NCBI GenBank assembly: GCA_964344705.1
Contig: CAYFOG010000003.1
Coordinates: 16,715-80,714, forward strand
DNA: 64,000 nt
Reading direction: 5' to 3'
Origin: Candidatus Woesearchaeota archaeon
GTDB lineage: Archaea > Nanobdellota > Nanobdellia > UBA10117 > ARS21
Shown here: positions 4,802 through 63,575 of the stretch, piece by piece
Layout of the letters: each line of letters starts with the position of its first letter
How positions within the stretch are numbered: the first letter of the stretch is position 1
The notes under the pieces: model-generated
Told to the model about the DNA's origin: nothing
Databases searched by the model: none
What the model saw: only the letters and a program-made list of their open reading frames with translations
Position numbers and translations under genes: made by a program

Positions 4802-4868
4802 GAAGAATTGTTATGTTCTAAAATAAAATAACTTTTAGTCTGGAACATATACTAAAAAATGAGCGAGA

Positions 4869-5138: not shown

Positions 5139-5158
5139 ATAAATCTATAGTCTCTGGA

Positions 5159-5168
5159 ATATAAAAGC
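5159..5168 (-). promoter_or_regulatory. TATA-box-like element for the Arg-rich repeat gene
   Basis: Minus-strand TTTTATATT centred about 26-30 bp upstream of the ATG at 5138. Confidence 0.35.
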
Positions 5169-5211
5169 TTTATGTGGTAACTGTTAAAAATAAGGTTTGA
5201 GAATATAATTT

Positions 5212-6060
5212 ATGGTTTTGGAGTCGCTTACGGGGGCGGAATATGCTGAGAAAAGACCGGCCGAAATGTTTATTGTAGCGTTCGCATATACAACGATTGC
5301 TATCTTGCTTTCATTGTGGGTCTTTGCAGAATACGCTGGTTTGACTATGGTATTTTTTACAGTAATGGCTGCCATACCTTTGATGATTAAATTGATAGTT
5401 CTTGAAGAGCGGAAATTATTCTCACGAGTACATAACACAACTCATCGAGCTACAATACCTTTCTTTATCTTTTTGTTTCTGGGAATGGTTTCAGCATTTA
5501 CTTTCTTTTTTACAGTCTTGCCTGAAGCCACAGTTAATCAGATTTTCAATGTTCAAATATCTACTATTCAAAGTGTTAATGCCAATATTATAAGTCAACT
5601 TTCTGGACAATTCTTTGGAGATTTTTTTCCGTTAGTAATCTTCAATAATCTCAAAGTTATGACTTTTGCTGTATTATTTTCGTTCATTTATGGTTCGGGA
5701 GCAATATTTATTTTGACTTGGAATGCTTCTGTTCTAGGTGTGGCAATTGGAAGTTTGATACGGGAGATTGTTGGCGCTGCTGCAACGAGTGTTGGTGCAG
5801 TAGGCGTTGGTACTTATTTCGGTGCTGTTTCCATAAGCTTTGCCAGATATCTAATTCATGGAATTCCGGAGATTGGAGCATATTTTGTTGCCGGACTCGC
5901 GGGAGGAATAATCTCGGTCGGAGTTCTCAGGTATCAACTGTTTGATGAGAAATTTATGGTAGTTATGAAAGATGCTCTATTTTTACTAATTGTTGCAATC
6001 ATATTGGTCTTGATTAGTGGTGCAACAGAGGTTTTGATTTCGCCACTTTTCTACGCATAG
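5212..6060 (+). CDS. polytopic membrane protein, possibly DUF95/SpoIIM-like
   Basis: 282 aa with multiple hydrophobic helices; segment IFNNLKVMTFAVLFSFIYGSGAIFILTWNASVLG resembles SpoIIM-family cores. Confidence 0.35.
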   Translation: MVLESLTGAEYAEKRPAEMFIVAFAYTTIAILLSLWVFAEYAGLTMVFFTVMAAIPLMIKLIVLEERKLFSRVHNTTHRATIPFFIFLFLGMVSAFTFFFTVLPEATVNQIFNVQISTIQSVNANIISQLSGQFFGDFFPLVIFNNLKVMTFAVLFSFIYGSGAIFILTWNASVLGVAIGSLIREIVGAAATSVGAVGVGTYFGAVSISFARYLIHGIPEIGAYFVAGLAGGIISVGVLRYQLFDEKFMVVMKDALFLLIVAIILVLISGATEVLISPLFYA

Positions 6061-8595: not shown

Positions 8596-10391
8596 GATTA
8601 ATTGAATGGTGTAAACAAAACTGGATGTTTTTGGGAGCTCTTGGTTTTCTAGCTGCGTTGAATTATTTGTATTTGAGTCCTTTGGAAAGTTTGCCGAGTC
8701 CACTTTATGGTGGAGATTATTATTATCAGCTGGGTCAAACAAATCATTTCAAATTTGGAGGAAGTCCTTTTGACTCTTCTACAATACTTGGTGCGCTTCC
8801 GGGATATTTTATTCTTTATACAATTGGTGCGGGCCTGATTGCGAAGCTTGGATTTGACGCAATTACCGCACACTTTATTTTTTCATACATAGTTCTGTTG
8901 TTGGGTGGAATTGTATTCTATGCTTTAGTTAAGAAATTATTCAACTCAAAAGTATTGGGTGTTGTTGGAGTTTTGGTGTTCTTTATGGCAGACAAGTTTC
9001 CAATTTTGAAGTATACTCCTTTTTCTGAGATGTTGATTATGCCTTTGATAATTTTACTTTTGTACAACTTTCTGAAAGATAGCTCAAAAAAGAATGCATT
9101 GATTTTAGGCGTAGGATATGGTTTTGCAGGTTTAGCGCACAGTATTTCGTTCATTGGGAGCACGTTGTTAATTTTTGCTGCTTTCTTGTGGTATGGTTTG
9201 CGGAGAGTGGGAAGCTTTAATTCGAAATTGAAGCCATATGTTATCGTTGCGGTTGTTGGTGGATTAATTGCAATGGCTTATTGGGCTGGACCAATATTTG
9301 TTTATCAAGGACAAACAAGTCCAAATTACAATGAGTGGAATAATCCTGATTGGTCCGATTTAGGATTCCAATTTGAATTTGTTAAGACAGTTATTGTTGG
9401 TGGTTTGTTCAGCTTCGGAACAATTAGCATTGCATTTGTCTCACTGTTCACTTTGCTTGGTTTAATTGGTTTGTTCCTGCATAAAAAATCTAGAGCTTTT
9501 GGCACAGAAAGTTATCTTAAATTTCTACTTGCAAGTGGATTAATTATCACACTTCATTATCTTGTTACTTCCAATTTATTTGGAATGCATTTTATTCCTG
9601 ATCGATTAAACACAATGTTGATGCTTCCAGTTTGGAGTTTACTTTTTGTCTACGGAGTAAGATTTGGTATTAGATTTAGCAAGAGTTTCAGCCTGACAAG
9701 AAAACAATGTGTTTCACTTATTGTCTTGGCTTTGTTAGTTTTCCAAGTAAGCGCATACAGTGTTAAGTCTAATGGTCAATGGTATCAAGGTGCTCGTAAT
9801 GAATTACCAATTCATATTGTTGATGCTTCTGATTATTTTATTGAACATAGTGATGTAAATGATGTTATTCTTACTACGAAGGAGCTTGGCTTTTCAATTA
9901 ATGCTTTAAGTGGTAGAAAACTTGTCTCAGTACGTCGGGCTCAGAATGATCCTTTTGTAGATATGGATCCTCGAGAGATAGATCATGCAATTATTTTGTA
10001 TGGAAATAATGATGCGATGCGTAAAGCTTTGCTTGAGAAATACAGTATTGATTATTTGTACTGGGATCAATATTGGTTCCAAAGTGAATATACTTTTGAC
10101 AGCTCTGGACAAATAGTGGGTAGTTTTGATCCTCTAATTGTATTTGATACTGAGGCGAACCGTAGAAGTTTGAACAAGTATGGAATTCAATATGTTCCAC
10201 AACACACGTGGGTGGACCCTGCGCTTCGAGGTGATGAATATAGAACTTTTGATTTGCTTTTGATATCTCCACAAAATTATCGAAACTTTGCAACTCCGTG
10301 GACGACGGGACTTGATAAATATTTGACGGAAGTTTGGAGATATGATGGTGATGGGCAAGTTTTGAGTAAGGTTTACAAAGTTGATTTGTAG
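8592..10391 (+). CDS. GT-C-like polytopic membrane protein (STT3/PMT/ArnT-like paralog lacking the WWDYG motif)
   Basis: 599 aa with an N-terminal multi-TM region and a C-terminal soluble domain. The ATGA start/stop overlap with aglB indicates co-translation. Confidence 0.4.
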   Translation: MRLIEWCKQNWMFLGALGFLAALNYLYLSPLESLPSPLYGGDYYYQLGQTNHFKFGGSPFDSSTILGALPGYFILYTIGAGLIAKLGFDAITAHFIFSYIVLLLGGIVFYALVKKLFNSKVLGVVGVLVFFMADKFPILKYTPFSEMLIMPLIILLLYNFLKDSSKKNALILGVGYGFAGLAHSISFIGSTLLIFAAFLWYGLRRVGSFNSKLKPYVIVAVVGGLIAMAYWAGPIFVYQGQTSPNYNEWNNPDWSDLGFQFEFVKTVIVGGLFSFGTISIAFVSLFTLLGLIGLFLHKKSRAFGTESYLKFLLASGLIITLHYLVTSNLFGMHFIPDRLNTMLMLPVWSLLFVYGVRFGIRFSKSFSLTRKQCVSLIVLALLVFQVSAYSVKSNGQWYQGARNELPIHIVDASDYFIEHSDVNDVILTTKELGFSINALSGRKLVSVRRAQNDPFVDMDPREIDHAIILYGNNDAMRKALLEKYSIDYLYWDQYWFQSEYTFDSSGQIVGSFDPLIVFDTEANRRSLNKYGIQYVPQHTWVDPALRGDEYRTFDLLLISPQNYRNFATPWTTGLDKYLTEVWRYDGDGQVLSKVYKVDL

Positions 10392-35910: not shown

Positions 35911-36620
35911 AAAGAAGTTTGTATGTGTGTGCTGGATTCTTTTTTGCTAAAACAAGTATCGTAAAATTCGCAATAATTACAGAAATATGATTCTTCTCTT
36001 ACAGGAGGTGTTGATGTTTTTAGCGCATTAGCTAATACTGTTCCTCTTGCTTCCAAATAACCCAGCATATTTCGCTTCTCAACCTCAAAGGTTTTTATCT
36101 TACTTAAGGAAAAGTAAACTATCATTAATTTTTTGACATCTTTTTGTTGGGATTCAGGTAACATTGAGAAGTATGATTGTATCTGCATAGTATGTTCGGG
36201 TTTGGGTTGTTTTGGTATTCGTTCTGTTGTCTTGAATTCATACATTATGTTGTTGGAAAATACGTCAATAAATCCTATGGCATCGAATACAGAAAAAGGT
36301 GCTTGGAGAAATACTTCATTTTCTTCTTCAGGAATGTGTTCTTGGAAGAAATTATGAATTGCGTGTCCTCTTGAAAATATCCAAAGTTTTTCCAAAGATA
36401 TTGGGATTTCTTCAGTTAAATCATAATAGGACTTTCTGAGGCAGTGTCCAGTTAGTCGAGTTACTCCAAAACGTGGTTTCTTGTTTGGATCTTTCTTTTT
36501 TCTTGGCTTTTGTCCGGCAAGAAGTGCTCTAAGGACAACATTTGGGTAGTTTTCAAAATTACTTTCTCTTACTTCATCAATATGTCTTTCCACACCATCT
36601 GGACAAATAATGTTACTCAT
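35892..36620 (-). CDS. Cas4/RecB-family PD-(D/E)xK exonuclease with 4-Cys Fe-S cluster (stand-alone; Dna2-nuclease-like)
   Basis: All Cas4 signatures are present in order: GVTRLTGHCLRKSYY (N-terminal Cys), GHAIH, AIGFIDVF (motif II Asp), YEFKT (ExK), QIQSYF (QxxxY), and C-terminal CNYCEFYDTC (CxxCx5C). Its 8-nt overlap with the PolD DP2 stop implies an operon. Confidence 0.8.
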   Translation of the reverse strand: MSNIICPDGVERHIDEVRESNFENYPNVVLRALLAGQKPRKKKDPNKKPRFGVTRLTGHCLRKSYYDLTEEIPISLEKLWIFSRGHAIHNFFQEHIPEEENEVFLQAPFSVFDAIGFIDVFSNNIMYEFKTTERIPKQPKPEHTMQIQSYFSMLPESQQKDVKKLMIVYFSLSKIKTFEVEKRNMLGYLEARGTVLANALKTSTPPVREESYFCNYCEFYDTCFSKKESSTHIQTSLENSGN

Positions 36621-39600
36621 TTATGAAACCTCCAAGACTTATTTGTTTTGTAGCATCTTTCCCGAAGACTGATTCGACTCTGCTGCTAAACAATCTTATC
36701 GATTCTCTCAAGTATTCACTAGTACCTTCAATTTCAATTAAGTTTAAAGTTGGCTCCAAATATTTCTTTACTGAACCTTCACTTATTGTGTATATTACTT
36801 TCGGTTTGTTGCATTTTACACACTTACCTGCGAGAGGTGGTCGACGATATTTTTCATTACAAGCAATGCAACGGAATCTTTGCATTGTGAACTTGCGCAT
36901 GTTTCCCTTAAGATCTCTTATGAAGTGTCCGTTGATTATTAGCTCACCAACTTTGTGTAAATCTACAGCACGTATTTTGTCAGCTAAATCGAGCTGCCCT
37001 TCCATTTTTTCCACCATTGTTGGAAGATATTTATATGCAGAAACATTTACTCCTTTGTTCATGTCTGAAACGGTATGTGTGAATCCGTGATTTTGATATT
37101 GATCTTCTTGGTCAATTACATCACCTATCGATTTAACTCTTACCTCCCAAGGATATTTCATTCCCAATGTTGCTTCATAAAACTCTAAAGGATAATCCCA
37201 AGTAATATTTAAATCGTATACTTCATCGTCAACTTCTTTGGAATTTAATATCGTAGATATAACTAAGGGTGCGTCCATGCTTCGGGCACCTCTTCGGTCA
37301 GGTAAAAAGTCTCTTGAGAAATTTAGGAATGCATCCAAAGTTAACATTATTGCTGTTTCTTCTCCATCTAAATCTCTACGTTGTGCTGCATGCCACATTG
37401 GATGGGCGATTACTCCTGAAATATTTGAGAATCCAATTATCCGACCAATGATTCCTGCTGACGTGTGTGGGGCAAGTCCGATTATTAGTTGTCCGATTAG
37501 ATCTTCATTTGTTGCGATGTTGTAGAATGCAGGCAATTTGTATAAATTCACAAGTTCTTCATCAACAAAATCTGCAACTCGTTTGAACACTGAGGTTGCG
37601 GATTCAATTCCTAAGAATTCTTCGTTCGGTAGAATTACGTCTTGAGGGAATATTTCCACCAATTGGGTTGGTTTCGTTAGTGGTTGGTTATGAACATCTT
37701 TTGTATATCCTAATTTATTTGCTTTCTTGACAGATAGTCCAATTTCTTTTGGTGTAAAGTGTGTTGCTCCCAATTCAGTTCCGTCATATCTTACTGTTCC
37801 ATCTTTGTTTACTCGGAGCGAGTGTTTGGCGCGTAGTAAACCTTTGGTTGGGTGTTCAACGTATCGGAATTTGTTCATTGTCGCTCGAACGCCTTTAATT
37901 AGTTTAGGGAAAGGTCCGTCCCATTCTTTTTTTATTCTCTTTGAAAGTTCAGGTAGAGCATACTTTCTCCTTTCGTAAGGGACGCAGGTTGGTGTTTCAG
38001 GTGTTGAATATTTTTTCTTTGTTTTGTAATCCACATATTGTTGTTGAGTATTTTCAGAATTACAGTGTTCGCACTTCTGAAATATTGTTGATTTGTTGCA
38101 GTCCAAACATTTGATTATTGGGAAGTCTGCAGTTACATGTCCAACAGTAATTGCTTCATTGAATGATCTCAATCGTCCACCTTCATTTCCAACCGGGAAT
38201 AAGAAATTTGGTGAGCCTTTCAAATCTCGCATTTTTGCCTTTTCAGGTCTTCCCATTCTTGCGCCGATTCCTGTTCCAAATTTATTTCTGAATTTTATGT
38301 CTGTTCTGAAGTGTGTATTTAGAATATTTTGATTTAATTTTGTTAAGATTATTTTATTGTCTTTTATCGTATGCGGACAACCAATTAATTCTAGCAATCT
38401 TTTTTCGGGCGCATCTGCAGGCATTTCTGATTTTATGTAATTTTGAAGTTGGATTTTTTGTTTTTCTTGGAGAGCGTCTAAATAGAATGTGAACTCTGGA
38501 TGTAGGGGAATGTTAAAATCTTTTGAGAGTTTGATAGCTGTGTCAAAATTTATTTCGGGTGGGATAAACGTGTTGAAAAAATCCTTTGGTAAATTGTGAT
38601 ACGTTTTCGGGTTGTCTTTGATTGCTTTCTTCAATTCCTGCGCCCACCATTCTGGACAATATCCTGCAGGAACGAGAAAGTGTCCGTTTTCTGTGAATTC
38701 TCCCGGAGATATTAGTATGTCTCCCAAATATAATATTTCTGCGATTTCTTTTGTGAGTTCCTTTGCCTCTTCTTCGGTTTTTGGTTTGTGTACTGATCCG
38801 TCTTTAAGTTTTACAATTGGTCCTTCAATTGAATCGCAAGAAGTAAGTGAAGTTGATTTCCCGGGTCGCTCAACCCTTAGTTGTGTTCCGATAGCCAAAT
38901 AATTGTTTAAGACTTGCATTGTTATTGGAGATATTGCCCAAGATCCATGACCTGTTAATCTTGACCTTCCATATCTTTGTCTGAAGCCACCCTGTCTTAA
39001 TGGGTGTGTGAATACGGGCCGTCCTGCAACAATTTCTGCAATATATGAATAATTTGGTTTGAGTTTGTTGTTGTCCTTTTCCTCAGTTTTCTGTCCATCT
39101 GCTTGTTCATGAATTTGTTTTTTTAGCTCTTGGTAATCATTTAGCCACTGCCAGTCTAAATCAAAATCTTTGCCCCAATTATTTAGCTTTTTCATTACTT
39201 TTCCGCCTTTTAGTGGAAGCGCGTCAGTCAACATGAGCGCAACACCGCCTCGAATTCTGTCAGTTTCAATTCGTGAGAGTCCTTTGAAATTTGATACTGT
39301 TAATTCAGAAGTTGGATCTCCGTCGAGCTCCACGGGAAGATTTGAAATTATGTGTCTAATTTCTTCTTCAGTTGGTTTGTATTGTTTTCTCTCAACTCGT
39401 TCGTAATAATCCATGACTTCTGTGTACATTCTTTTGATTTCTTGAGTCGTTGGATCATATTTTTCTATTCCTTGCTTTTTTCGGACGTAATCTGCAATTA
39501 CTGTTGTGACTGCTGACGCTGTTGCTCCACCGCCTCGAATCGGTCCAGCATAGTAAAGTGCTAAATAATCCTTTCCGTCGTTTCGTTTTTTGAATTTTAC

Positions 39601-40008
39601 ATCGATTAAGCCTTCTAAAGGTGCTGAAACAACGCCTTGTGTAATGTATGCGAAGCCGGTTCTGATGCCAATATTTATTGCAGTTATTTTGTTCTCAAAT
39701 TTACAAAATTTTTCTGAGCTTATTTCATCCGCCAGAACGAGCGCTACGCGCCAATCTCCAAAACCATATTGTTTTTCAAGTTCGCTGATTCTTTCAACAA
39801 TTCCGCTTCCAATTAAATTTGGAGATATGGATCCCATGATTGCTTCAACCCTTTCTGCGACAGAAGCAGCAATTGGAATATCACATTTGGTTTGTGGGTC
39901 AATTCCTGCTTTTCTTGCTTGGTTTGCTAATTCACGTAGTTCAAGAGTTTTTGATTTGAGTGTTGAAAAATATTCTTCGATATGTTTGGGTGCAACAAGA
40001 TTTGACAT
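36613..40008 (-). CDS. polC: DNA polymerase II (PolD) large catalytic subunit DP2
   Basis: 1131 aa with the archaea-specific DP2 architecture and C-terminal zinc-ribbon cysteines (CIACNEKY...CVKCNKPK). Length indicates no intein. Confidence 0.85.
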   Translation of the reverse strand: MSNLVAPKHIEEYFSTLKSKTLELRELANQARKAGIDPQTKCDIPIAASVAERVEAIMGSISPNLIGSGIVERISELEKQYGFGDWRVALVLADEISSEKFCKFENKITAINIGIRTGFAYITQGVVSAPLEGLIDVKFKKRNDGKDYLALYYAGPIRGGGATASAVTTVIADYVRKKQGIEKYDPTTQEIKRMYTEVMDYYERVERKQYKPTEEEIRHIISNLPVELDGDPTSELTVSNFKGLSRIETDRIRGGVALMLTDALPLKGGKVMKKLNNWGKDFDLDWQWLNDYQELKKQIHEQADGQKTEEKDNNKLKPNYSYIAEIVAGRPVFTHPLRQGGFRQRYGRSRLTGHGSWAISPITMQVLNNYLAIGTQLRVERPGKSTSLTSCDSIEGPIVKLKDGSVHKPKTEEEAKELTKEIAEILYLGDILISPGEFTENGHFLVPAGYCPEWWAQELKKAIKDNPKTYHNLPKDFFNTFIPPEINFDTAIKLSKDFNIPLHPEFTFYLDALQEKQKIQLQNYIKSEMPADAPEKRLLELIGCPHTIKDNKIILTKLNQNILNTHFRTDIKFRNKFGTGIGARMGRPEKAKMRDLKGSPNFLFPVGNEGGRLRSFNEAITVGHVTADFPIIKCLDCNKSTIFQKCEHCNSENTQQQYVDYKTKKKYSTPETPTCVPYERRKYALPELSKRIKKEWDGPFPKLIKGVRATMNKFRYVEHPTKGLLRAKHSLRVNKDGTVRYDGTELGATHFTPKEIGLSVKKANKLGYTKDVHNQPLTKPTQLVEIFPQDVILPNEEFLGIESATSVFKRVADFVDEELVNLYKLPAFYNIATNEDLIGQLIIGLAPHTSAGIIGRIIGFSNISGVIAHPMWHAAQRRDLDGEETAIMLTLDAFLNFSRDFLPDRRGARSMDAPLVISTILNSKEVDDEVYDLNITWDYPLEFYEATLGMKYPWEVRVKSIGDVIDQEDQYQNHGFTHTVSDMNKGVNVSAYKYLPTMVEKMEGQLDLADKIRAVDLHKVGELIINGHFIRDLKGNMRKFTMQRFRCIACNEKYRRPPLAGKCVKCNKPKVIYTISEGSVKKYLEPTLNLIEIEGTSEYLRESIRLFSSRVESVFGKDATKQISLGGFINE

Positions 40009-47342: not shown

Positions 47343-49205
47343 ATGGGTTTTAAGAATACATCTGAACTTGAAGTTCCCAATAAACTTGTAGATAAAATTA
47401 TTGGACAATCCAAAGCAGTTTCAATTATCAAAAAAGCTGCAAAACAAGGAAGACACGTTCTTTTGATTGGTGAACCGGGCACTGGGAAATCAATGCTTGG
47501 TCAGGCTTTAGCCGAAATTGCACCGCGGCAAAATTTACAAGACATCTTAGTTATACCTAATCTCAAAGATGAAAACAATCCAAAGATTCGTTCTTTACCT
47601 TCTGGACGAGGACAAGAGATAATTTCACGAGCTAAACAAAGAGCAGATATTGGTAACCGAAGACAAACAGTTGTGTTCTTCTTTTTGGCAATCATTGCGG
47701 CATTCTTCCCTTGGTGGATTCGAAATAACTATGGAGATATTATGGCAGCAGCTTCACTTATTTCTGGAATGATGTTCTTGTTACTTTATGGAGTCATGAC
47801 TAGCATGGGTGCAAAGCGAAAACAAATTCTTGAGCCAAAACTTCTCATTGATACAGCAAAAAATAATGCTGCGCCGTTTATTGATGCAACGGGAGCACAT
47901 GCCGGAGCTTTACTTGGTGATGTTCGACACGATCCATTTCAATCCGGAGGATTAGGAACGCCTGCGCATATGCGAGTTGAGCCAGGAATGATTCACAGAG
48001 CAAATCAAGGAGTTTTATTTATTGATGAAGTGGCGACACTCAATCCAACAACTCAACAAGATCTTTTGACGGCCATGCAGGATCGAAAATATTCAATCAC
48101 TGGACAATCTGAACGGAGTGCGGGCGCAATGGTTCGAACTGACCCGGTTCCGTGCAAATTTATTTTAGTTGCGGCAGGAAATACAGATACAATTCAAAAA
48201 ATGCATCCTGCTTTAAGATCCAGAGTTCGAGGGTATGGATATGAAGTTGTAATGGACAAGTTTATTGATGACACGCCAAAGAACAGAGATTATTATTATA
48301 GGTTTATTGCACAAGAAGTTTTGAAGGATGGAAAAATTCCACATTTTGATAAGAAAGCATGTGATGAAATTATTAGAATTGCTCGGAGAATGGCGGGCCG
48401 TAAAAGCAAACTAACTCTTAAATTTAGAGAACTTGGAGGAATTGTTCGCGGAGCGGGCGATTTAGCATCAGAGGAAAACAGTAAATATGTCGAACTTAAA
48501 CATGTTCGTGCAGCCATGAAGATTTCAAAGACTTTGGAACAACAGCTTGCTGACAAACACATTGAACACATTTCAGATTACAGAATTATTCGTAGCGAAG
48601 GAACAGAAGTTGGAAGAGTAAATGGTCTGGCAGTTATCGGAGATTCGGGAATTGTTTTACCGATTGAAAGTGAGGTTGCAAAAGGCGGAAAGAAACGAGA
48701 AATTATTGCAACAGGAAAGCTTGGAAAGATTGCAAAAGAGGCAATCGACAATGTTAGCGCAATAATCATGAAACATTTTGGAGAAGACATCAAAGATAAG
48801 TATGACTTGTATGTTCAGTTTATTCAAACTTATGAAGGTATTGAAGGAGATTCTGCGAGCGTTTCAGTTGCAAGTTCAATTATATCTGCTTTGAGAAATG
48901 TACCATTGAAACAAAATGTTGCAATGACTGGAAGTCTATCTGTTCGTGGAGAAGTTCTACCTGTTGGTGGAGTGACTCCCAAGATTGAAGCTGCAATCGA
49001 GGCAGGTTTGAAGGAAGTAATAATTCCAAAACAAAATGAAAAAGATATTGTGCTAAGTCCTACTATGCGGAGAAAAATTAAGATTCATTTTGCAGATAAT
49101 TTAATTGACGTTCTAAAAATATCGCTTGACAATCGAAAAGGTAAAAAGGTAATTCAAGCATTGAAGACTAATGGAATTAAATCCCGAAAAACTAAAAAGA
49201 ATTGA
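47343..49205 (+). CDS. lonB: archaeal membrane-bound Lon protease (LonB)
   Basis: AAA+ Walker A GEPGTGKS, a two-TM insertion within the ATPase domain ([13 protein letters not shown]...), and a C-terminal protease domain with catalytic Ser in [11 protein letters not shown] plus a downstream Lys. Confidence 0.9.
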
Positions 49206-52799: not shown

Positions 52800-54854
52800 T
52801 TGTCTAGTGATATTTTTATGGTGGAGTTAATTATCTCTGAGAAACCGTCTGCTGCTGAAAAAATTGCTGCAAGTTTTGATAAGTCTAGTTTGAAGCGTCT
52901 TAATGGAGTGAAGTATTGGGAAGCAGATAATGGAAATATTCTGATTGGTTCTGCAGTTGGACATTTGTTTGGTTTAAAGAAAACTGAGAGATTTTATCCA
53001 GTGTTTAATCTTGAGTGGCAACCATCTTATTCAAGTCGCGGAGGCGCCTTTCAAAAACCATATTTTCAAACTTTGAAAAGTCTTGGAAAGAAAGCCGATG
53101 CGGTAACTGTTGCGACAGACTATGATATCGAAGGAGAAGTTATTGGTCTGAATGTTGTTCGTGAGTTGTTAGGTTTGAAGGACGCAAACAGAATGAAGTT
53201 CTCTACACTTACGGTTGAGGAGTTACGAGAAGCATACAAAAATAAAACTAAGACTTTAGATTGGGGACAAGCAAATGCCGGAGTTGTTCGACATACTCTT
53301 GATTGGTATTATGGAATTAACTTGTCTCAAATAATTTCCAAATCACTTTCAGCTGTTTTGAACAGATATCAGCCTTTGAGCATTGGAAGAGTTCAAGGAC
53401 CTGCGCTTGCGATATTGGCTGAACGTGAGCTTGAAATTAAGAAGTTTAAACCTGAACCTTTTTGGCAGATTTTTGCAAACCTTTGGTTGAATTCTCAGAA
53501 GTTTCAAGCAGTTCATGAGAAAGATAAGTTCTGGAAAAAGGCCAATGCTGATAAAATATTTGCAAAGGTTAAAGATAAGCCTGGACGAATTGTTGATATT
53601 AAGAAACGCAAGCAAAAAGTTCCAGTTCCAGTTCCGTTTGATTTAACATCCCTTCAAATTGAAGCTTATAGAGTTTTCAAATACAGTCCGTCAATGACTT
53701 TGAAGATCGCTCAAACGCTTTACACTAAAGCCTTAATTTCATATCCTCGAACTTCAAGTCAGAAGTTGCCAAAGGCTTTGAATTTCAAGAAAATAATTTC
53801 CAAACTCGGTTCAAATCCTGCTTATTATGAAATCGCTAAAGAAGTTTTAGCTACTAAATTGATTCCGAAACAAGGTCGAAAGTCTGATCCTGCGCATCCA
53901 GCAATTCATCCAACAGGTGAAAGAGCTGGAGCTTTGGCTGAACCGGACAGGAGAATCTATGATTTGATTGTTAGACGATTCTTTTCCGTATTTGGTCAAG
54001 ATGGAGAACGCGAGACAACGGCAGTCAGGATAGATGTTGAGAAAGAGATTTTCAAATTTTCTGGGACTGTTACAACTAACACTGCTTGGCAGAAATGGTA
54101 CGGCCCTTATGCTTTGCGGAAAGAACTTGAATTGCCCCCACTTAAAGTTGGACAAGTGTTGAATCAGAATACTGAACTGCTTGAGAAAGAAACTCAACCG
54201 CCTGCGCGATATAATGTTGCATCTTTGATTAAACTATTGGAGAAATTGAACTTAGGAACTAAAGCGACACGTTCGCAAATTATTGAAACGCTTGTGAAGA
54301 GGAATTATGTTCAAGGCAATCCGATGGAAGTCACTGAGTTTGGAATGAAAGTTTATCATGTCTTCAAGAAACACGCGCCAGAAGTTTTGAGTGCGAAGTT
54401 AACTCGAAATTTTGAAAAAGGAATGGACGGAATTCGTGAGGGCAAAGTTAAACCTGAAGCAGTTATAAAAGTTGGACAAGATGCAGTTACTAAATTATAC
54501 TCTCAGTTGAAGGAAAGTTCTGAAGCGATTGGTAAAGCGCTATCTGCAAGTTTTGTTGAAACCAAAAAGAAACAAGTTACGTTGTTTAAGTGTGTAAAGT
54601 GTAAGAAAAATGATTTAGTTGTTCGAAGGTCGCGCGCGTCTCGGAAAAGATTTATTGCTTGTTCAGGTTATCCTAAGTGTAAATTTACTTGGCCTCTTCC
54701 TCAGAAAGGAATTTTGAGCGTGGTAAAAAATAAAAAGTGTGAGTACTGTAATATACAAATGTTGCAGACGCGATCTGGTCGACGACGACCTTGGATTTTC
54801 TGCCCAAATCCAGATTGTGAAAGTAAAAAGAAAGATGAAACCGAAGACAGTTGA
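52800..54854 (+). CDS. topA: type IA DNA topoisomerase (Topo I/III-like) with C-terminal zinc ribbons
   Basis: Toprim (ELIISEKPSAAEKIA, TDYDIEGE), active-site Tyr region ISYPRTSSQ, and C-terminal CxxC...CxxC repeats (CVKCKK..., CSGYPKC, CEYC...CPNPDC). Confidence 0.85.
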   Translation: MSSDIFMVELIISEKPSAAEKIAASFDKSSLKRLNGVKYWEADNGNILIGSAVGHLFGLKKTERFYPVFNLEWQPSYSSRGGAFQKPYFQTLKSLGKKADAVTVATDYDIEGEVIGLNVVRELLGLKDANRMKFSTLTVEELREAYKNKTKTLDWGQANAGVVRHTLDWYYGINLSQIISKSLSAVLNRYQPLSIGRVQGPALAILAERELEIKKFKPEPFWQIFANLWLNSQKFQAVHEKDKFWKKANADKIFAKVKDKPGRIVDIKKRKQKVPVPVPFDLTSLQIEAYRVFKYSPSMTLKIAQTLYTKALISYPRTSSQKLPKALNFKKIISKLGSNPAYYEIAKEVLATKLIPKQGRKSDPAHPAIHPTGERAGALAEPDRRIYDLIVRRFFSVFGQDGERETTAVRIDVEKEIFKFSGTVTTNTAWQKWYGPYALRKELELPPLKVGQVLNQNTELLEKETQPPARYNVASLIKLLEKLNLGTKATRSQIIETLVKRNYVQGNPMEVTEFGMKVYHVFKKHAPEVLSAKLTRNFEKGMDGIREGKVKPEAVIKVGQDAVTKLYSQLKESSEAIGKALSASFVETKKKQVTLFKCVKCKKNDLVVRRSRASRKRFIACSGYPKCKFTWPLPQKGILSVVKNKKCEYCNIQMLQTRSGRRRPWIFCPNPDCESKKKDETEDS

Positions 54855-55995: not shown

Positions 55996-58281
55996 ATGCC
56001 TAAAGCTGAAATTATCTTAAAAGTTCAAGAAGCCGTTCAGGACGACGTTGATAAAGGTGTTGTCCGTGTTGAAAATGAATATTTGAAAAAGCTTGGAATT
56101 GAACAAGGCGATTTTGTTGAAATTCAAGGTGACAAAAAGACTGTCGCTATTGCAGGTAGAGCTTTTCCAGCAGATTTGGGTCTTGGAACTATTCGAATGG
56201 ATCCATTGAGTAGAAAAAATGCTGGAACAAGCGTTTCCGAAAGAGTAACTATTCGCGCAGCTGAAGTTGAAGTTGCAAAAAAAGTTACTTTGGCACCAGC
56301 ACAGAAAGGTGTCCGAATTAAAGCTCCAGCGCAAATGTTTCAACGAGCACTTCTCAGACGACCAATCTCTAAAGGAGATATAGTTACAATCAGCACCTCA
56401 AGACGAAGACGTTTCAATAATCGTGGAGATCCTCTGATGGAATTTGCGGAAGCACTTGCAGGTTTGGATATTGGTGGCGCATTACCATTTATGTCGGGAC
56501 TGCGGTTTGTAGTTGTTAGTGCAACCCCTAAAGGGGCGGTTCTGATTACTGAAGACACTAAGATTGAATTGAGATCTGAGGCCGTACAAATTTCAGAAGA
56601 TGCAGTTCCAGATGTTTCTTATGAGGACATTGGTGGACTTAAAGGTGAAGTTGAAAAAGTCCGTGAAATGATTGAAATTCCAATGAAGCGTCCAGAACTA
56701 TTTGATCGTTTAGGAATTCAACCTCCAAAAGGAGTCCTTCTTTACGGACCGCCCGGAACAGGTAAGACTTTGTTAGCTAAAGCAGTCGCCTCGGAATCTC
56801 AAGCATCTTTTCACTTAATAAATGGTCCAGAAATTATGAGTAAGTTTGTTGGAGATGCTGAAAAGAAAATTAGAGCCATTTTCGATGATGCTGAAAAGGA
56901 AGCCCCAAGCATTATATTCATTGATGAAATTGACGCAATCGCACCGAAGCGAGAAGAAAGTTATGGTGAAGTTGAGCGAAGAGTAGTTGCACAGTTATTG
57001 ACTCTTATGGATGGAATGAAGGGTCGAGGAAAAGTTATCGTCATTGCAGCCACAAATCGGCAGGACGCACTTGATCCAGCACTTAGACGGGGTGGAAGAT
57101 TTGATAGAGAAATTGAAATTGGTGTTCCAAACAAAGAAGGTCGATTACAAGTTTTGAAAATTCATACCAGAAATATGCCGCTAGCAAGAAATGTCAGTTT
57201 GAAGGAATTAGCAGATGTTACTCATGGTTTTGTTGGGGCAGACTTAGAAGCGCTAGCTAAAGAGGCCGCGATGAACGTTATTCGTAGAGTTATTATGAAG
57301 CACGATTTGAAAGATGACGAACCCCTTACTGATGAAATTATGAAGAAACTAGTAGTTAGAATGGCAGATTTCAAAGATGCATTGAAGAATGTTACTCCTT
57401 CAGCTATGCGTGAAATTTTAGTTGAAACTCCAAATGTTCCTTGGGAACGAATTGGAGGTCTGGAGAAAACTAAGGCAGAATTAATTGAATCTGTTGAGTG
57501 GCCAATCAAGAATAGAAAGATGTTCACAGATATGGGAATTAGACCTCCGCGAGGAATTTTACTTTATGGGCCTCCAGGAACAGGTAAGACTTTGTTAGCT
57601 AAAGCAGTCGCAACTGAAAGCGAGGCAAATTTTATTTCTGTTAAAGGTCCAGAACTGCTGAACAAATGGGTTGGAGAATCTGAGAAAGCAGTTCGAGAAA
57701 TATTCAAGAAAGCTAAGCAAGTTGCACCGGCAGTTATTTTCTTTGACGAAATTGATTCTATTGCGGGATCTCGAGGAGCAAGAGAAGGTTCAAAGGTTTC
57801 CGAGAGTGTTGTCAATCAAATTTTAACCGAAATTGACGGTGTTGAAGAACTTAGTGATGTTGTAGTTATCGCTGCGACGAACAGACCCGAATTGGTTGAT
57901 GCTGCATTACTTCGGCCTGGACGATTTGACCGACACTTGTTAGTAAGTCCTCCAAATAAAGAGGCAAGAATTGAAATTCTAAAAGTTCACACTAAAGATG
58001 TTCCTTTAGCCAAAGAGATTTCATTGTCCAATTTAGCCAAAGATATGGATGGATATTCTGGAGCAGATATTGAAGCAGTAGTCCGAGAATCGGCGATGAT
58101 TGTTTTGCGAGAAATCAAAGAAGGAAAAAAAGGCAAAGGAAAAGTTACAAAGAAACATTTTGCTGAAGCTTTGAAGAAAGTTAAACCTTCATTGAGCAAG
58201 CTTGAACTCGATAAGTATCGTGAAGCACTTGAAGCGGCATCTGTAGCTGCGCCAAAGAATGGTCCGAGCTATATGGGTTAA
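55996..58281 (+). CDS. cdc48: CDC48/VCP-type AAA+ ATPase (double AAA cassette)
   Basis: N-domain plus two AAA modules with Walker A GPPGTGKT (twice) and Walker [17 protein letters not shown]; 761 aa. TATA-like cttttaaaattt about 30 bp upstream. Confidence 0.95.
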
Positions 58282-58310: not shown

Positions 58311-58991
58311 ATGGCTGAACAATCTTCGCGCTATATTAGTTTTAATGGAAAAGTTAGTGCAAGTCCTTCTTTCAAGAATCTAGATTCATACAAAGTTCGA
58401 GTGACATCAACAAAACAAGTTTATGATTCAATAAAGCATCTTGGCGAGGCAAAAGTTGATGAGAATGCAGGAATCATTCTTGGCAATGTTTCATATTCTG
58501 GTGAAAATAATTCAGTTCTTACTTTGAATGTTACAGGATTCAAACCTTTATCTTATAGAGAACGTAATGATGAACGCCTAGATGGAAAGGAAGGTCCGCA
58601 AATTGGATTTTTAACTAAATTGGCCTTTAGTGTTATTCTTGCCAGAAAGCCAAAAGATCTTCCTCAAGGCGGAACATATCTCACCCGGAAAGTTATTGCT
58701 TTGCTTGGGCAATTAGGTTCAGGAATAGGTTTTTATCATTCACATCCAACTATTGACAAACTTGGATCTTCAGATAAAAAAGAGATTAAACAAATGGTTT
58801 CTGTACCGCAATTCAAAGATTCTGTAAAATTTCATGTTCTGGCTCGCTCATCAGGAATAGGTTTTAGCTTATATTATTTAGGAAGAGTTCCAGGAATGAA
58901 ATTTATGAACAAACGATTAAAACCAGTTGAGCCAATTGCATATTATACGATTGATGATAAAATTGTTCCAATTCCTTGGGAAATTATCTAA
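58311..58991 (+). CDS. MPN/JAMM-domain protein (putative metalloisopeptidase, Rpn11/JAMM-like) with N-terminal extension
   Basis: MPN signature Glu followed by GIILG (DENAGIILGN) and the JAMM-type GFYHSHPT...S.D motif; 226 aa. Immediately downstream of cdc48 with a 29-bp gap. Confidence 0.5.
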   Translation: MAEQSSRYISFNGKVSASPSFKNLDSYKVRVTSTKQVYDSIKHLGEAKVDENAGIILGNVSYSGENNSVLTLNVTGFKPLSYRERNDERLDGKEGPQIGFLTKLAFSVILARKPKDLPQGGTYLTRKVIALLGQLGSGIGFYHSHPTIDKLGSSDKKEIKQMVSVPQFKDSVKFHVLARSSGIGFSLYYLGRVPGMKFMNKRLKPVEPIAYYTIDDKIVPIPWEII

Positions 58992-59878
58992 CCCAAAACA
59001 ATTGGTTTATCATCTACAATTATTGTATGCTCAAACTGAGCCACGAGTGATCCTTTTTCTTCTAATAGAACTTTATGATCGTATAGAATATCTGCCTTTA
59101 CAAATGAGTTTAGTGCCAACCTAGTTTTCAACGGACCAAACTTATTTTGTAATTCTCTTTCCGAAAATGGAAGAGTTTTGTAGGTTTCAACAATATGTTT
59201 TAATATTTCTTTATACATGCGAACTGGTTTAGCTTCCTTGAGTTCGTAGATTCCTGAGCTTGCGCCACCCTTTACGGCTCCGCGTCCGTTAGTTACGAAA
59301 GGCTCTATTGCAATTACGTCGCCCTTTTTCAGAGTTTCATTGCTCTTGTTGTCATAATTTGGAATGTTATATCCAGTATGAACAGCATACCTATCAATGC
59401 CGTGTCCGGACAAATTTTTGATTACTCTGTAACCTGCCTTTTTTGCAGTGCCCTCTATTTGAGCACCAATATCGGAGACTTTAACCCCGGGCTTGAGAAT
59501 TTTTATGGCGTTGTCGAGAGCAGATCTTGCCGTTTTTATCATCTTATCATGCTCTTTTGTATCAACTCCGAATGAAATCGCGCTATCTACAATGTATCCG
59601 TCTACGTGTACGCCCGCATCTAACTTTACTAAATCCCCTTTCTTTATCACGTTTTTATCGTTGTACAGAGCAGAATAATGTGCTGCTACATCATTAACCG
59701 AAACATTTGCCGGGAAAGCCAAGTCTGCGCCAAGTTCTCTAGTCTTAGATTCAATTTTTTCAGTCAATTCTAAATAAGATATTCCTGGCTTTGCTAAACT
59801 CTTCCCATATTTTTTTACTTTTTTGGAAATCTCGCTCGCTTTTTTGTATTTTGTCAGTGCTTCTTTACTTAGTCCCAT
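58988..59878 (-). CDS. map: methionine aminopeptidase, type 2 (archaeal/eukaryotic form)
   Basis: Pita-bread fold motifs (DAGVHVDGYIVDSA, HGIDRY..H, AIEPF); 296 aa. Confidence 0.85.
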   Translation of the reverse strand: MGLSKEALTKYKKASEISKKVKKYGKSLAKPGISYLELTEKIESKTRELGADLAFPANVSVNDVAAHYSALYNDKNVIKKGDLVKLDAGVHVDGYIVDSAISFGVDTKEHDKMIKTARSALDNAIKILKPGVKVSDIGAQIEGTAKKAGYRVIKNLSGHGIDRYAVHTGYNIPNYDNKSNETLKKGDVIAIEPFVTNGRGAVKGGASSGIYELKEAKPVRMYKEILKHIVETYKTLPFSERELQNKFGPLKTRLALNSFVKADILYDHKVLLEEKGSLVAQFEHTIIVDDKPIVLG

Positions 59879-59884
59879 TTCAGT

Positions 59885-62215
59885 TTAGAACCATTGGTCA
59901 AGTCCTGTATTAAGGTTTTTGATTTGCTCCTCTGAATAACCAAAGAGTTCAAGAATTTTATATGTTGCGCCAATTACTTGATTGTTGATATAATAATCTT
60001 CATCAATTTCTTCTATTTTTGTTTGTTCAGGTAGTTTTACTCTATCACTAATTCGTTTTGAAATTCCCTTAGTGACGACATAATTCACAATCGTTCCTGC
60101 TCCAACTTTAATTCCACTTTGAGCTAATAATTCTCCTGCTGCAACTTGCGGTCCGCGCGTTTTATATTCATGCAGTTGTTTTGTCAATCTGTTTGAAATT
60201 ATTAAATCCCGAATATCTATGTTTTTACTTCTAACATTTGCAATTATTTCTTGTATTTTTTCCAATGCTGGCTTTCCATCAACTTCAGTTAGAATTTTAT
60301 TAAGTGTTTCAACTTGTGCTTTTTGTGCGAGCTTTGACCAATCCCCTCTCCGAGACTCCAAACCCTTTACAATTAATTTATCGTTTTGATCCAATAAAGC
60401 ATACCTCTTTTTTGCACCCGCACCAGAACCTTTCTTCTCAAGAAATACTCCAGACTTGAACAAACCTTCTTCTTCAAGTTCCATTGGGTTTGGAAGGAGT
60501 TTATTTGCCTCGACTTTGAAGTCATCCATTGAATCAGAATCGATTAGGAATACAGAATCAGTATCTCCATAGATTACTTTTATATCATGTTTTTCTGCCA
60601 AGTCAATTGTGTTGTGAATATATTTTCTTCCCATTGCAGTTATTGATCGTGCGCAATCCAAAGAGTACCATCTCGCACCAAAGAATGCTAAGTATCCGTA
60701 GAAAGAATTAGCAAGAATTTTTAGTCCGTATGATTCTGCATCTAAAGTCCTATACTCATCTGAATCTTTCTTATATTTCTTTAGTTCATATTTCACTTCA
60801 AATCTTCGAGTAATTATTCTCTCAATTAGTTCCGGCACGAAACCTTTCTTAGATTTATCAAAAAACACTGCTTTATCAGGAAGATTTATTTTTTCTTCAT
60901 CACTCCCTTTGAATTTCATAGTATACTTATCGATGTTGTGAGCAATCAGAATTGTCGGATACAAACTTCGGAAGTCAAAAACTCTAACATCTTTGTAAAC
61001 TCCCGGTGTTGGCTGATACACAAATGCACCTTCTGCTTGTGTCGCACGTCTTTTTATTATTTCATCATTTGAAGGACGATTTTCAATTATTCTATTCTGC
61101 TCAATTGCACTTTTGATTATGAACTGTTCTACAAGTCTACCATATCTCATTCGAGTTACATCAAACAAAGGTAGTCCTGTGAATTTTGAAAATTGTAATG
61201 CGATGGGCAATATTTTCTCAGCAAGCAAATAAGTTAGTTTGGAATCTAATAAATTATATTCCGAAAATCGATTCATATTTTCATCGCTTTTATCTAACCA
61301 TGCTTCATGAGGTAAAACTCCCAGTTCTAGTTTTTTCTGTCCCAAAATTTCTTCAGATACATTATCTAAAGAAAGTGAACTTGTTTTCAGTTTCGGAGCC
61401 AAGACATTTCGAATAAAAATATATGCGTCCAAATGAGTTATCCCATTTATTTTTACAGGTCTGGCGTTTCTGGTTCCACGCGTAAAAATTGGTTCTTCAT
61501 TTAATGGCGCCAAAGTTAGTTTTACTTTATTTTTCGCTGCACGCTCTTTAATAAACCACAAGTCAAATATATCTGAGTTGTAACCAGTTATAATATCTGG
61601 TTTAAATTTATTTATTGTTTCTCTAAAATCTTCCAAAAGTTCTCTTTCTGAAGCGACCGAATTTATGTATTTGTGTTTTTTCTTAAAGTCTCGGATTATT
61701 GTAACTTTTTCAAAATCTTTACTATAATATGAGATTGATACAATTTTGTCAATCAAGGGATCTGGAAAATTTCCGTCACTTGTAGTCTCAATATCAAATG
61801 CAAGAATCTTTGGTTGAAAGTTTTTGTATAATTCTATTCCATTATCCAAAATTGACCGGAAAACATATGGAATGTCTGCTTCATAAACTTCTTTCACGCT
61901 TGGCAATTCACGTATTGTTTCACGGATAACTGGAACTTCTCTGGGAAAATTGACAACGATCTTCAGAAATTTAGTTTCTTTGTTTTGAAAATTTTTAATT
62001 ACCTTTTCAACCCCAACAACCTTTCTTTGTTTATCTTTGAATTCGTAAGTTAGTGCAAGAATATCCTTTTTCGCCTGCTCCAAATTAATTGGGAGCACCA
62101 TAAAATAAGGTTCTGGCGCATCAAAGTCTTCTACAATCTTTTTTCCGTCCGAAGTTTTGATTAATTTGAGATGCCGTTGGCTATCTTCTGAATAAACAAC
62201 ATCAATAATAGTCAT
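59885..62215 (-). CDS. polB: family B DNA polymerase (PolB) with 3'-5' exonuclease domain
   Basis: Exo I FDIETT, Exo II/III motifs, polymerase motif A DFRSLYPTI, motif B KILANSFYGY, motif C YGDTDS; 776 aa, no intein. Confidence 0.9.
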   Translation of the reverse strand: MTIIDVVYSEDSQRHLKLIKTSDGKKIVEDFDAPEPYFMVLPINLEQAKKDILALTYEFKDKQRKVVGVEKVIKNFQNKETKFLKIVVNFPREVPVIRETIRELPSVKEVYEADIPYVFRSILDNGIELYKNFQPKILAFDIETTSDGNFPDPLIDKIVSISYYSKDFEKVTIIRDFKKKHKYINSVASERELLEDFRETINKFKPDIITGYNSDIFDLWFIKERAAKNKVKLTLAPLNEEPIFTRGTRNARPVKINGITHLDAYIFIRNVLAPKLKTSSLSLDNVSEEILGQKKLELGVLPHEAWLDKSDENMNRFSEYNLLDSKLTYLLAEKILPIALQFSKFTGLPLFDVTRMRYGRLVEQFIIKSAIEQNRIIENRPSNDEIIKRRATQAEGAFVYQPTPGVYKDVRVFDFRSLYPTILIAHNIDKYTMKFKGSDEEKINLPDKAVFFDKSKKGFVPELIERIITRRFEVKYELKKYKKDSDEYRTLDAESYGLKILANSFYGYLAFFGARWYSLDCARSITAMGRKYIHNTIDLAEKHDIKVIYGDTDSVFLIDSDSMDDFKVEANKLLPNPMELEEEGLFKSGVFLEKKGSGAGAKKRYALLDQNDKLIVKGLESRRGDWSKLAQKAQVETLNKILTEVDGKPALEKIQEIIANVRSKNIDIRDLIISNRLTKQLHEYKTRGPQVAAGELLAQSGIKVGAGTIVNYVVTKGISKRISDRVKLPEQTKIEEIDEDYYINNQVIGATYKILELFGYSEEQIKNLNTGLDQWF

Positions 62216-62607
62216 TATTCTGATTCTTCGCCCTTGATTTGATTGAAGAATCTTCGCATATCTCGTTGAACTTGGTCTGCGTCAACCTTAAGCTTTTCAA
62301 GACTTAAATGAAGTCTTTCTTCATCTTTTACAAGATTTGCAATTTGATCAAAAGGCGCTGTTGCTCTTTGGAAGTCAGCAAGTCCAATAGAACCATATGG
62401 AGAATTGTCCATCTCCTGCGCGACCTTTGCAACGAGGCTCCCAAGCCATAGATTTAATGAATCCTTAACTTCAGATCGAATTTGTTTCCCATCAGTAATC
62501 GATGCTCGCATCAGTCTTACAACTCTTGCGCGAGGAAAAGGTAAACTTTCATCATCATCCTCTTCAGTTATTTGCTCTTCTACTGGCATTTTTTCGTCAG
62601 TTTCCAT
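62215..62607 (-). CDS. histone-fold protein of the NF-YC/Dpb3/H2A-like (CBFD_NFYB_HMF) type with acidic N-terminus
   Basis: ESLPFPRARVVRLMRA (alpha1, cf. LPLARIKKIMK), long alpha2 IRSEVKDSLNLWLGSLVAKVAQE, L2 and alpha3 ...FQRATAPFDQIANLV (cf. NF-YC ...AITKFDQFDFLI). The stop overlaps the polB ATG (TAATG). Confidence 0.55.
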   Translation of the reverse strand: METDEKMPVEEQITEEDDDESLPFPRARVVRLMRASITDGKQIRSEVKDSLNLWLGSLVAKVAQEMDNSPYGSIGLADFQRATAPFDQIANLVKDEERLHLSLEKLKVDADQVQRDMRRFFNQIKGEESE

Positions 62608-62654
62608 GTTATATGGTTAGTTGTAAAAGCTTTAAAATTTAAGGATTTGCCTTT

Positions 62655-63044
62655 TTAATCAGACAAATCAATATCGCTCTCGTATTGCGTTTCCTCTAAT
62701 TCTTGTACTTCGTTTTCATCTTCTTCATCAAAATTGTAACCATATTCTTCTTCAATGATTTTATTACAAATTTGTGAGACTCCATACTTCAACAATTCTT
62801 CAGTGGGTTCTTCATGAATCGCCTCTGCAACAGCAGTGAGAAGAGTCATTACATTCTCTGAAAGTTCATAACTTCCACCCCTTTGACCGTTTACATATTG
62901 TGAGATTGCCGATACTTGGGAATTCATCAATTCCGCAATATCTTTTTGAGAAATTCCTCTTCCTTTGAGTTCTTTTGCAAGCGCAGCTTTAACCGAATGT
63001 ATTGCTGTTCGAGCAATAAACTCGTGAGGATACACAATTGGCAT
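62655..63044 (-). CDS. HTH (XRE-like) domain protein with acidic C-terminal tail
   Basis: ISQKDIAELMNSQVSAISQYVNGQRG helix-turn-helix; C-terminal 35 aa are D/E-rich (EEDENEVQELEETQYESDIDLSD). Confidence 0.45.
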   Translation of the reverse strand: MPIVYPHEFIARTAIHSVKAALAKELKGRGISQKDIAELMNSQVSAISQYVNGQRGGSYELSENVMTLLTAVAEAIHEEPTEELLKYGVSQICNKIIEEEYGYNFDEEDENEVQELEETQYESDIDLSD

Positions 63045-63084: not shown

Positions 63085-63360
63085 TTAAGAGAAGTTTTTG
63101 ATGAAAATTCGAGTGATAAATCCACTAACTATTAACAGTCCAAGCCCCACAGCCATTGCTTCTCCATAACTCAGATATGATGAACTCCATCGACTAATGC
63201 CGCTCCATAATAATATGAACCCAATTCCTGCAGTAAATGCGAGCATGAAATGACGAATAATTGCTGCTTGTTTATCAAATTCTTTTTGTCTTTTACGTCG
63301 TTTTTTTGCAAGGAAGCTAGCACGCCTTTTTTGTGACCGTGTTAGTTTTGAAAAGTCCAT
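63085..63360 (-). CDS. small membrane protein (hypothetical)
   Basis: 91 aa with a basic N-terminus (KRRASFLAKKRRKRQ) followed by two predicted TM helices. Confidence 0.3.
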   Translation of the reverse strand: MDFSKLTRSQKRRASFLAKKRRKRQKEFDKQAAIIRHFMLAFTAGIGFILLWSGISRWSSSYLSYGEAMAVGLGLLIVSGFITRIFIKNFS

Positions 63361-63407: not shown

Positions 63408-63413
63408 CAAAAA
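63408..63413 (-). terminator. oligo-T run immediately 3' of tRNA-Cys (archaeal-type terminator)
   Basis: Plus-strand aaaaaa equals TTTTTT on the minus strand directly after the tRNA discriminator base. Confidence 0.4.
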
Positions 63414-63487
63414 AGCGCGGAGAGGGATTTGAACCCCCGAATGACGGGACTGCAACCCGTCGCCTTACCGGACTTGGCCACCCGCGC
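63414..63487 (-). tRNA. tRNA-Cys (anticodon GCA)
   Basis: The reverse complement folds as a cloverleaf: acceptor GCGCGGG/TCCGCGC, D-arm GCC-AAGTCCGGTAA-GGC, anticodon stem ACGGG/CCCGT with loop TTGCAGT (GCA), T-arm GGGGG-TTCAAAT-CCCTC, and discriminator U (Cys identity). CCA is not encoded and an oligo-T follows. Confidence 0.8.
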
Positions 63488-63575
63488 CTATTTTTAGGGC
63501 TGATTTTTCATTTAAAACTCTTTCTGAGCTGGTTTTTCGGATTAAACTTATATAGTTCAAACGTCATTTTTGAAA

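Follow-up and report, generated by a model that had tools for sequence, protein, structure and literature searches.

Organization of the locus

We analysed a family B DNA polymerase (PolB) gene and its neighbours in the genome of a Candidatus Woesearchaeota archaeon (GenBank assembly GCA_964344705.1, contig CAYFOG010000003.1, positions 16,715 to 80,714 of the forward strand). This whole stretch of 64,000 nucleotides is called the window here, and all coordinates refer to it. The polymerase gene, polB, is directly preceded by the gene of a 130-residue protein, which we assign to the coiled-coil (CC) histones, a described family of divergent archaeal histones. The two genes share the five nucleotides TAATG, so that the stop/start overlap reported in a preliminary description of this DNA is borne out, and the gene of a type II methionine aminopeptidase (MetAP, map) starts 6 nt after the polB stop codon. 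The features of the locus, all on the minus strand, are as follows.

62655-63044, minus strand: gene of a helix–turn–helix (HTH) protein, HTH_3 (XRE-type); open reading frame (ORF), Pfam HTH_3 E = 1.6e-5
62631-62642, minus strand: TATA-like element TTAAATTTTAAA, putative own promoter of the histone gene with a short leader or none; about 29 nt upstream of the histone ATG
62215-62607, minus strand: CC histone gene, 130 residues; ORF, span including the stop codon
62545-62607, minus strand: acidic disordered N-terminal tail, residues 1-21, net charge -10; from the charge count and a predicted local distance difference test score (pLDDT) below 50 for residues 1-16
62350-62544, minus strand: histone-fold core, residues 22-86, with α1 (26-36), L1, α2 (45-66), L2 and α3 (from 76); from the secondary structure of an AlphaFold2 model
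62218-62349, minus strand: C-terminal helix continuous with α3 (model helix 76-125); a single helix with pLDDT 79-92
62213-62217, minus strand: TAATG stop/start overlap of the histone gene and polB, in the sequence GAA-TAA-TG-ACT
59885-62215, minus strand: PolB, family B DNA polymerase, 776 residues, Pfu/KOD-like; Pfam DNA_pol_B E = 3.9e-60 and an exonuclease domain
58988-59878, minus strand: MetAP (map), third gene of the putative operon; NCBIfam TIGR00501 E = 7.6e-89

Related loci carry A/T-rich TATA-like boxes at a comparable distance from the histone gene, and several of them also have a GAGGTG Shine–Dalgarno-like motif. The histone gene probably has its own promoter, and the operon would therefore consist of the histone gene, polB and map. 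MetAP is encoded downstream of polB in most related loci.

Histone fold of the 130-residue protein

The 46 close relatives of the protein come from Woesearchaeota-type metagenome-assembled genomes (we take such archaea to be included in the Nanoarchaeota of GTDB), and they are annotated as 'hypothetical' or not at all. The window protein matches the Pfam family CBFD_NFYB_HMF with an E value of 0.0021 and 18.7 bits, which is under the gathering score of 21.4 and covers only α1 to mid-α2. The same family is matched by 31 of 35 aligned relatives, with a best E value of 4e-5. Searches of the PDB with the single sequence and with the close-family profile returned only coiled-coil noise (CEP135, BICD2), and histones were reached only by a broad profile of 50 diverse family members. 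This profile matched H2B (8.4e-6), NF-YB2 (1.2e-4), archaeal histone A (3.7e-3) and NC2 alpha (9e-3). The AlphaFold2 model, calculated from the alignment of relatives, has a pLDDT of 79; a disordered N-terminal tail (residues 1-16) is followed by two helices (26-36 and 45-66), a loop and one long helix (76-125). Its structural neighbours include NF-YB and NC2 alpha, and it shows a generic structural similarity to Dpb4 and Dpb3. The histone fold named in the preliminary description is thus established at the level of family matches, PDB profile matches and a predicted structure. The more specific affinity to the NF-YC/Dpb3 (H2A-like) type did not hold, since the scores of H2B-like, H3-like and archaeal histones are equal or higher, and the 'FDQ' motif that had been compared with NF-YC is not conserved even inside the family, where PYD, PYE and PYT are found.

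The three parts of the protein differ in their residues. The N-terminal tail varies in length among relatives and is acidic in all of them. In the core, the basic residues R31, R34, R44 and K48 lie on the α1/L1 face; the close family has R44 and K48 without exception, and across the whole family R31, K/R34 and K48 are conserved. The C-terminal helix shows an a/d heptad pattern, read from the sequence, of I89, L92, L99, L103, L106, A110, V113, M117, F120 and I124, and the heptad helix is about 40 residues long.

No second histone-fold gene was detected with the family hidden Markov model (HMM) in the operon or in the related loci scanned, which leaves room for a partner encoded elsewhere. One family member, P0049 (276 residues), carries the whole CC-histone unit of acidic tail, histone fold and long helix twice in one polypeptide. 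The AlphaFold2 model of this natural tandem doublet left the packing of the two halves unresolved and does not demonstrate a handshake.

Relationship to the coiled-coil histones

CC histones combine a histone fold with a long C-terminal helix, which in the predicted tetramer takes part in a coiled coil (Schwab et al. 2024, Nat Commun 15:7950, PMC11390915). They occur in Nanoarchaeota, other DPANN phyla and Methanobacteriota, commonly though not universally with highly acidic disordered tails, and examples are HMfC (Mfer_0945, E3GZL0) of Methanothermus fervidus and A5UK87 of Methanobrevibacter smithii (PMC11390915). HMfC, a member without acidic tails, bridges DNA in vitro and is the only member for which bridging has been shown, and the CC histone of M. 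smithii has a low expression (PMC11390915).

An exhaustive profile search with the window family yielded 106 representatives at the 50% identity level. In many of these, the motif LPFAKAEVVRLMK...MIRERVKVEMNKFLG occurs together with acidic tails and a long C-terminal helix. The subgroup with LPFAKAEVVRLMK... comprises 2,921 proteins, labelled 'histone H3/H4' by JGI, and its sources include Methanobrevibacter millerae, M. thaueri, M. filiformis and Methanobacterium oryzae. Representatives of the Methanobacteriales type were matched by hmmsearch with E values of 1e-20 to 1e-10. Alignment of the window family with the Methanobrevibacter/Methanobacterium subgroup by hhalign gave a probability of 99.5% and an E value of 2.9e-23 over 113 columns, covering both the histone fold and the C-terminal helix. 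The cloning primer of HMfC encodes MEEKLPFA (PMC11390915), which contains LPF, the α1 motif of the window protein's family. The CC-histone logo proposes R32, K35, R45 and K49 as DNA-contact residues (PMC11390915), and R31, R34, R44 and K48 have an identical spacing, from which we infer that the two sets correspond.

Because of the hhalign homology, the LPF motif, the spacing of the basic residues and the clean heptad helix, we assign the 130-residue protein to the CC histones, on sequence comparison and the predicted structure, as a divergent archaeal histone of an already described family and not as an NF-YC/Dpb3-type subunit. The CC histones (PMC11390915) are widespread in DPANN and Methanobacteriota and are normally encoded away from polB.

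Linkage of the histone gene and polB

The linkage was counted from both genes. The sample collected from the histone comprises 23 evaluable related loci, in which the histone is 52-93% identical. PolB is encoded immediately downstream in 16 of them, with a spacing of -8 to +17 nt and mostly with overlapping genes, so that the gene order is conserved among relatives of the window locus. In L004 the histone–PolB pair follows genes of RNA polymerase, L7Ae and NusA, and no MetAP gene follows it; in the complete chromosome L023 the pair stands with neither MetAP nor CDC48 nearby. The pair therefore stays together in these two loci, where both flanks differ. The remaining seven loci lack PolB, and in five of these MetAP follows the histone directly or after small ORFs. 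The small ORFs that replace PolB are unrelated to one another, and no PolB remnants are detectable in the seven loci. Since the PolB-less loci are scattered in the neighbour-joining histone tree, PolB appears to have been lost several times independently. Distant CC histones are not near PolB, as seen in L029 (39% identity), in L031 and in Methanobrevibacter and Methanobacterium; in the latter two genera the CC-histone genes are monocistronic and adjoin a convergent ZPR1 gene.

The sample collected from PolB comes from a metagenome scan with the PolB alignment, which gave 80 loci. The histone-linked PolBs form one clade in a neighbour-joining tree. Within this clade, to which the window PolB belongs, a CC-histone gene lies directly upstream in 26 of 26 evaluable distinct PolBs, 12 of which were found without recourse to the histone. 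No CC-histone gene lies within 3 kb of any of the 53 PolBs of the sister clades, whose upstream genes encode HIT-like, OGG-like and other proteins. The association is asymmetric because the PolB of this clade was never seen without the histone, whereas the histone often occurs without PolB. We looked for a clade-specific insertion or extension in the histone-linked PolBs that might serve as a docking site and found none; only five positions discriminate these polymerases.

What is new at this locus is a clade-specific linkage, in which the histone gene is found directly upstream wherever the polB of one Woesearchaeota-type clade is present. The preliminary description had called the coupling of PolB with a histone-fold gene undescribed, and this stands: within the limited coverage of the full-text literature searched, we found no report of a histone–polB operon in Woesearchaeota or other DPANN archaea and no paper on such a coupling.

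Several single loci show further peculiarities. The PolB match of L010 (2524-4994) is in two pieces with about 100 nt between them and query residues 430-446 overlapping, a pattern that points to a frameshift, a small insertion or an error of the assembly. In L008 and L019, the two histone loci with neither PolB nor MetAP, a PolX-like gene (Pol β family) stands at a distance of one or two genes from that of the CC histone (4651-5595 on the plus strand of L008, 6648-7628 on the minus strand of L019); this proximity may be a coincidence or another polymerase association. The CC-histone gene of L031 (6001-6351, about 24% identity) adjoins divergent genes of topoisomerase VI A and B (6930-9705).

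The polymerase

PolB is colinear with the Pfu, KOD and Tgo PolBs over residues 3-775 (PDB match with E = 5e-129), and its exonuclease motif FDIET and polymerase motif YGDTDS are intact. Its nearest eukaryotic relatives in the PDB are Pol δ and Pol α, and the same search returned no Pol ε chain at E ≤ 1e-20. These matches speak against the earlier suggestion that the pair is a precursor of the Pol ε histone-fold module. The window also encodes DP2, the large subunit of PolD (36613-40008, minus strand, 1131 residues), with three Pfam DP2 domains at E values of 1e-81 to 1e-104, and PolB is therefore a second polymerase of the organism. Genetics in Thermococcus and Methanococcus indicates that PolB can be dispensable where PolD is present, which would fit the repeated loss of PolB here.

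Neighbouring genes

The HTH gene probably forms a separate transcription unit, apparently under a promoter of its own, and is a frequent upstream neighbour of the histone gene. Its orthologues lie upstream in many related loci at distances of 49 to more than 600 nt. Only close relatives of the HTH protein share its acidic tail, and distant orthologues have a four-Cys tail or none. The protein with this tail had been likened to small acidic polymerase-binding proteins, a likeness that loses its basis with a lineage-specific tail and an apparently separate transcription unit; as a conserved polymerase-binding feature it was rejected because of its restriction to close relatives. In many related loci the HTH gene is preceded by a conserved 91-residue basic/transmembrane ORF, found here at 63085-63360 (minus strand), and upstream of the latter lies a tRNA-Cys(GCA) gene (63413-63488, minus strand).

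On the other side, the MetAP/CDC48 block is kept with the histone locus in most relatives. The genes of CDC48 (55996-58281, plus strand), topoisomerase IA (52800-54854, plus strand) and LonB protease (47343-49205, plus strand) are within 10 kb of the operon. A 226-residue ORF (58311-58991, plus strand) directly follows CDC48, runs towards the convergent MetAP gene and overlaps it by 4 nt. Its only match, to Prok-JAB, is weak (E = 0.058), and its position is occupied by other genes (NUDIX, HNH, a 112-residue ORF) across related loci. The CDC48 orthologue of L001 (8502-11396, minus strand) has 964 residues compared with 761 in the window, and a gap of about 190 residues, which may be an intein, interrupts its tblastn match; L001 also carries a free-standing LAGLIDADG ORF.

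A genomic island was rejected on account of the uniform GC content, which is about 35%. A viral module was likewise rejected, since no relatives were found in IMG/VR viral contigs.

Proposed role and alternative explanations

In the explanation that we prefer, with a probability of about 0.72, the 130-residue protein is a DNA-bridging CC histone that is co-transcribed and translationally coupled with a second, dispensable polymerase. By analogy with HMfC and the published AlphaFold models, two chains would form a histone-fold dimer that binds DNA with its α1/L1 face (R31, R34, R44 and K48), and the C-terminal heptad helices of two dimers would associate in a coiled coil to give a tetramer. With two opposed DNA-binding faces, such a tetramer could bridge two duplexes. 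The acidic N-terminal tail may mask the basic face and would then possibly be auto-inhibitory. In one Woesearchaeota-type clade of the GTDB Nanoarchaeota, the CC-histone gene would have acquired its place directly upstream of a Pfu-like polB, at the head of a compact histone–polB–map transcription unit. From the stop/start overlap and the compactness of this unit we infer co-transcription and translational coupling, by which the levels of histone and PolB would rise together; such joint levels could serve replication- or repair-associated DNA organisation. The fold, the family membership, the operon-like arrangement and the clade-wide conservation are the observed starting points of this explanation.

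Several points weigh against it. The association in 26 of 26 PolBs is stronger than would be expected of a mere neighbour and leaves room for a direct functional tie. The assignment to the CC histones was made via homology to Methanobacteriales proteins, and the dimer, the tetramer and the bridging rest on homology to HMfC and on published models. In addition, the trees are rough neighbour-joining trees.

A direct tie would be closest if the histone-fold protein served this PolB as its own accessory subunit, with a function analogous to that of Dpb3–Dpb4 of Pol ε. Such a subunit would bind both the polymerase and duplex DNA and would raise processivity or hand over or bridge nascent chromatin. 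The stop/start overlap, the place directly upstream of all 26 clade PolBs (12 of them from the PolB-first search) and the survival of the pair when both flanks are rearranged are what such a subunit would lead one to see. However, 7 of the 23 related loci keep the histone in the same place without PolB, with no co-loss, and the wider family, with thousands of Methanobacteriales members, is unlinked to PolB. HMfC acts on DNA alone (PMC11390915), the linked PolBs have no clade-specific docking insertion or extension beyond the five discriminating positions, and the MetAP gene is attached to polB almost as tightly although no functional link is expected for it. We regard such a subunit as unlikely, and are equally doubtful that a CC histone was recruited as a dedicated DNA-binding partner of PolB, which would make it a convergent archaeal counterpart of Dpb3–Dpb4 that could anchor the polymerase on duplex DNA or bridge the daughter duplexes in its wake. 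An evolutionary tie of the pair to the Pol ε histone-fold module (Dpb3/Dpb4, POLE4/POLE3), as its precursor or as a relative, is extremely improbable. The only argument for this descent is the analogy of a family B polymerase beside a histone-fold protein, together with the generic structural similarity to Dpb4 and Dpb3, and it is opposed by a Pfu/KOD-like PolB that is nearest to Pol δ and Pol α with no Pol ε chain to 1e-20, by a single histone-fold gene instead of an H2A-like/H2B-like pair, by a linkage that occurs in one DPANN clade only and is not seen in the other sampled CC-histone lineages, and by a coiled-coil helix in the family that is missing from Dpb3/Dpb4.

Two further explanations dispense with a role at the polymerase. 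The protein could be a sequence-specific regulator of the NF-Y/NC2 type, acting on the polB–map operon or on other genes, and not a general chromatin protein. The histone gene is the first of its unit and adjoins the gene of an HTH regulator, NF-YB and NC2 alpha are among the structural neighbours, and the low expression of the M. smithii CC histone (PMC11390915) is atypical of a bulk chromatin protein. We nevertheless consider a regulator quite improbable: there is no evident partner subunit and no evident element for sequence-specific recognition such as NF-YA, the DNA that HMfC binds and bridges is generic (PMC11390915), and the conserved basic residues are those for histone backbone contacts. 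The adjacency might also be neutral, a result of inertia in the gene order of a block (HTH, histone, PolB, MetAP, CDC48) that rearranges slowly, with the overlap a consequence of the compaction of small DPANN genomes. Overlapping or nearly overlapping genes are indeed common along the window, and the whole block, including the functionally unrelated MetAP and CDC48, is kept in most loci. Inertia of this kind is very unlikely to be the explanation, as the pair persists with both neighbours changed (L004 and L023) and no PolB of the clade was found apart from the histone.

The preferred explanation, a bridging CC histone coupled with a second polymerase, bears on a family whose functional data consist of in-vitro bridging by one member only. 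The comparative genomics adds a clean association, in which every sampled polB of the clade is preceded, and usually overlapped, by a CC-histone gene. This provides a lead for CC-histone biology, namely replication- or repair-coupled chromatin bridging, and the locus would make it cheap to test if family B polymerases outside eukaryotes can be served by histone-fold proteins. If the subunit explanation were true, the protein would be the first histone-fold polymerase subunit outside eukaryotes; if PolB and the histone do not interact, the locus is an ordinary lineage-specific operon.

Comparison with known systems

We compared the locus with systems in which a histone fold or a small protein is associated with a polymerase and with other archaeal histones. 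Dpb3–Dpb4 (POLE4–POLE3) and CHRAC-14/16 are obligate H2A-like/H2B-like heterodimers without a coiled coil, whereas the locus here has a single gene and a predicted homo-oligomer. Moreover, Dpb3–Dpb4 is bound to the C-terminal half of Pol2, and the PolB here is a Pfu-type protein of 776 residues without an extra module. The 130-residue protein has no specific sequence affinity to the NF-YC/Dpb3 class. PBP1 and PBP2 of Sulfolobales are PolB1-binding proteins. They resemble the present case as small proteins, one of them with an acidic tail, that are associated with an archaeal family B polymerase; however, they lack a histone fold and belong with another polymerase subfamily, and the acidic tail seen here in the HTH protein is lost from conservation outside its close relatives.

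Among archaeal histones, the canonical nucleosomal proteins HMfB, HPhA and HTkA differ in that α2 of the 130-residue protein, with 22 residues in the model, falls short of theirs by about one turn and that the acidic tail and the coiled-coil helix of about 40 residues are additions; the CC family is also predicted to bridge DNA and not to wrap it. The Methanococcales bridging histone MJ1647/HmvA (PDB 8BDK) and the RdgC-operon histones show little sequence similarity to the protein and have another C-terminal element. They further differ in the operon partner (RdgC-like and a transmembrane protein, compared with PolB and MetAP here). The closest likeness is to the CC histones HMfC and A5UK87, with a histone fold followed by a long heptad C-terminal helix, an acidic disordered tail, the α1 motif LPF-x-A-x-V-x-R-x-M-K/R, basic residues spaced as R32/K35/R45/K49 and occurrence in the GTDB Nanoarchaeota. 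The difference lies in the genomic context: the gene described here stands in a polB–map operon with a start/stop overlap, a context unreported in the description of the family (PMC11390915).

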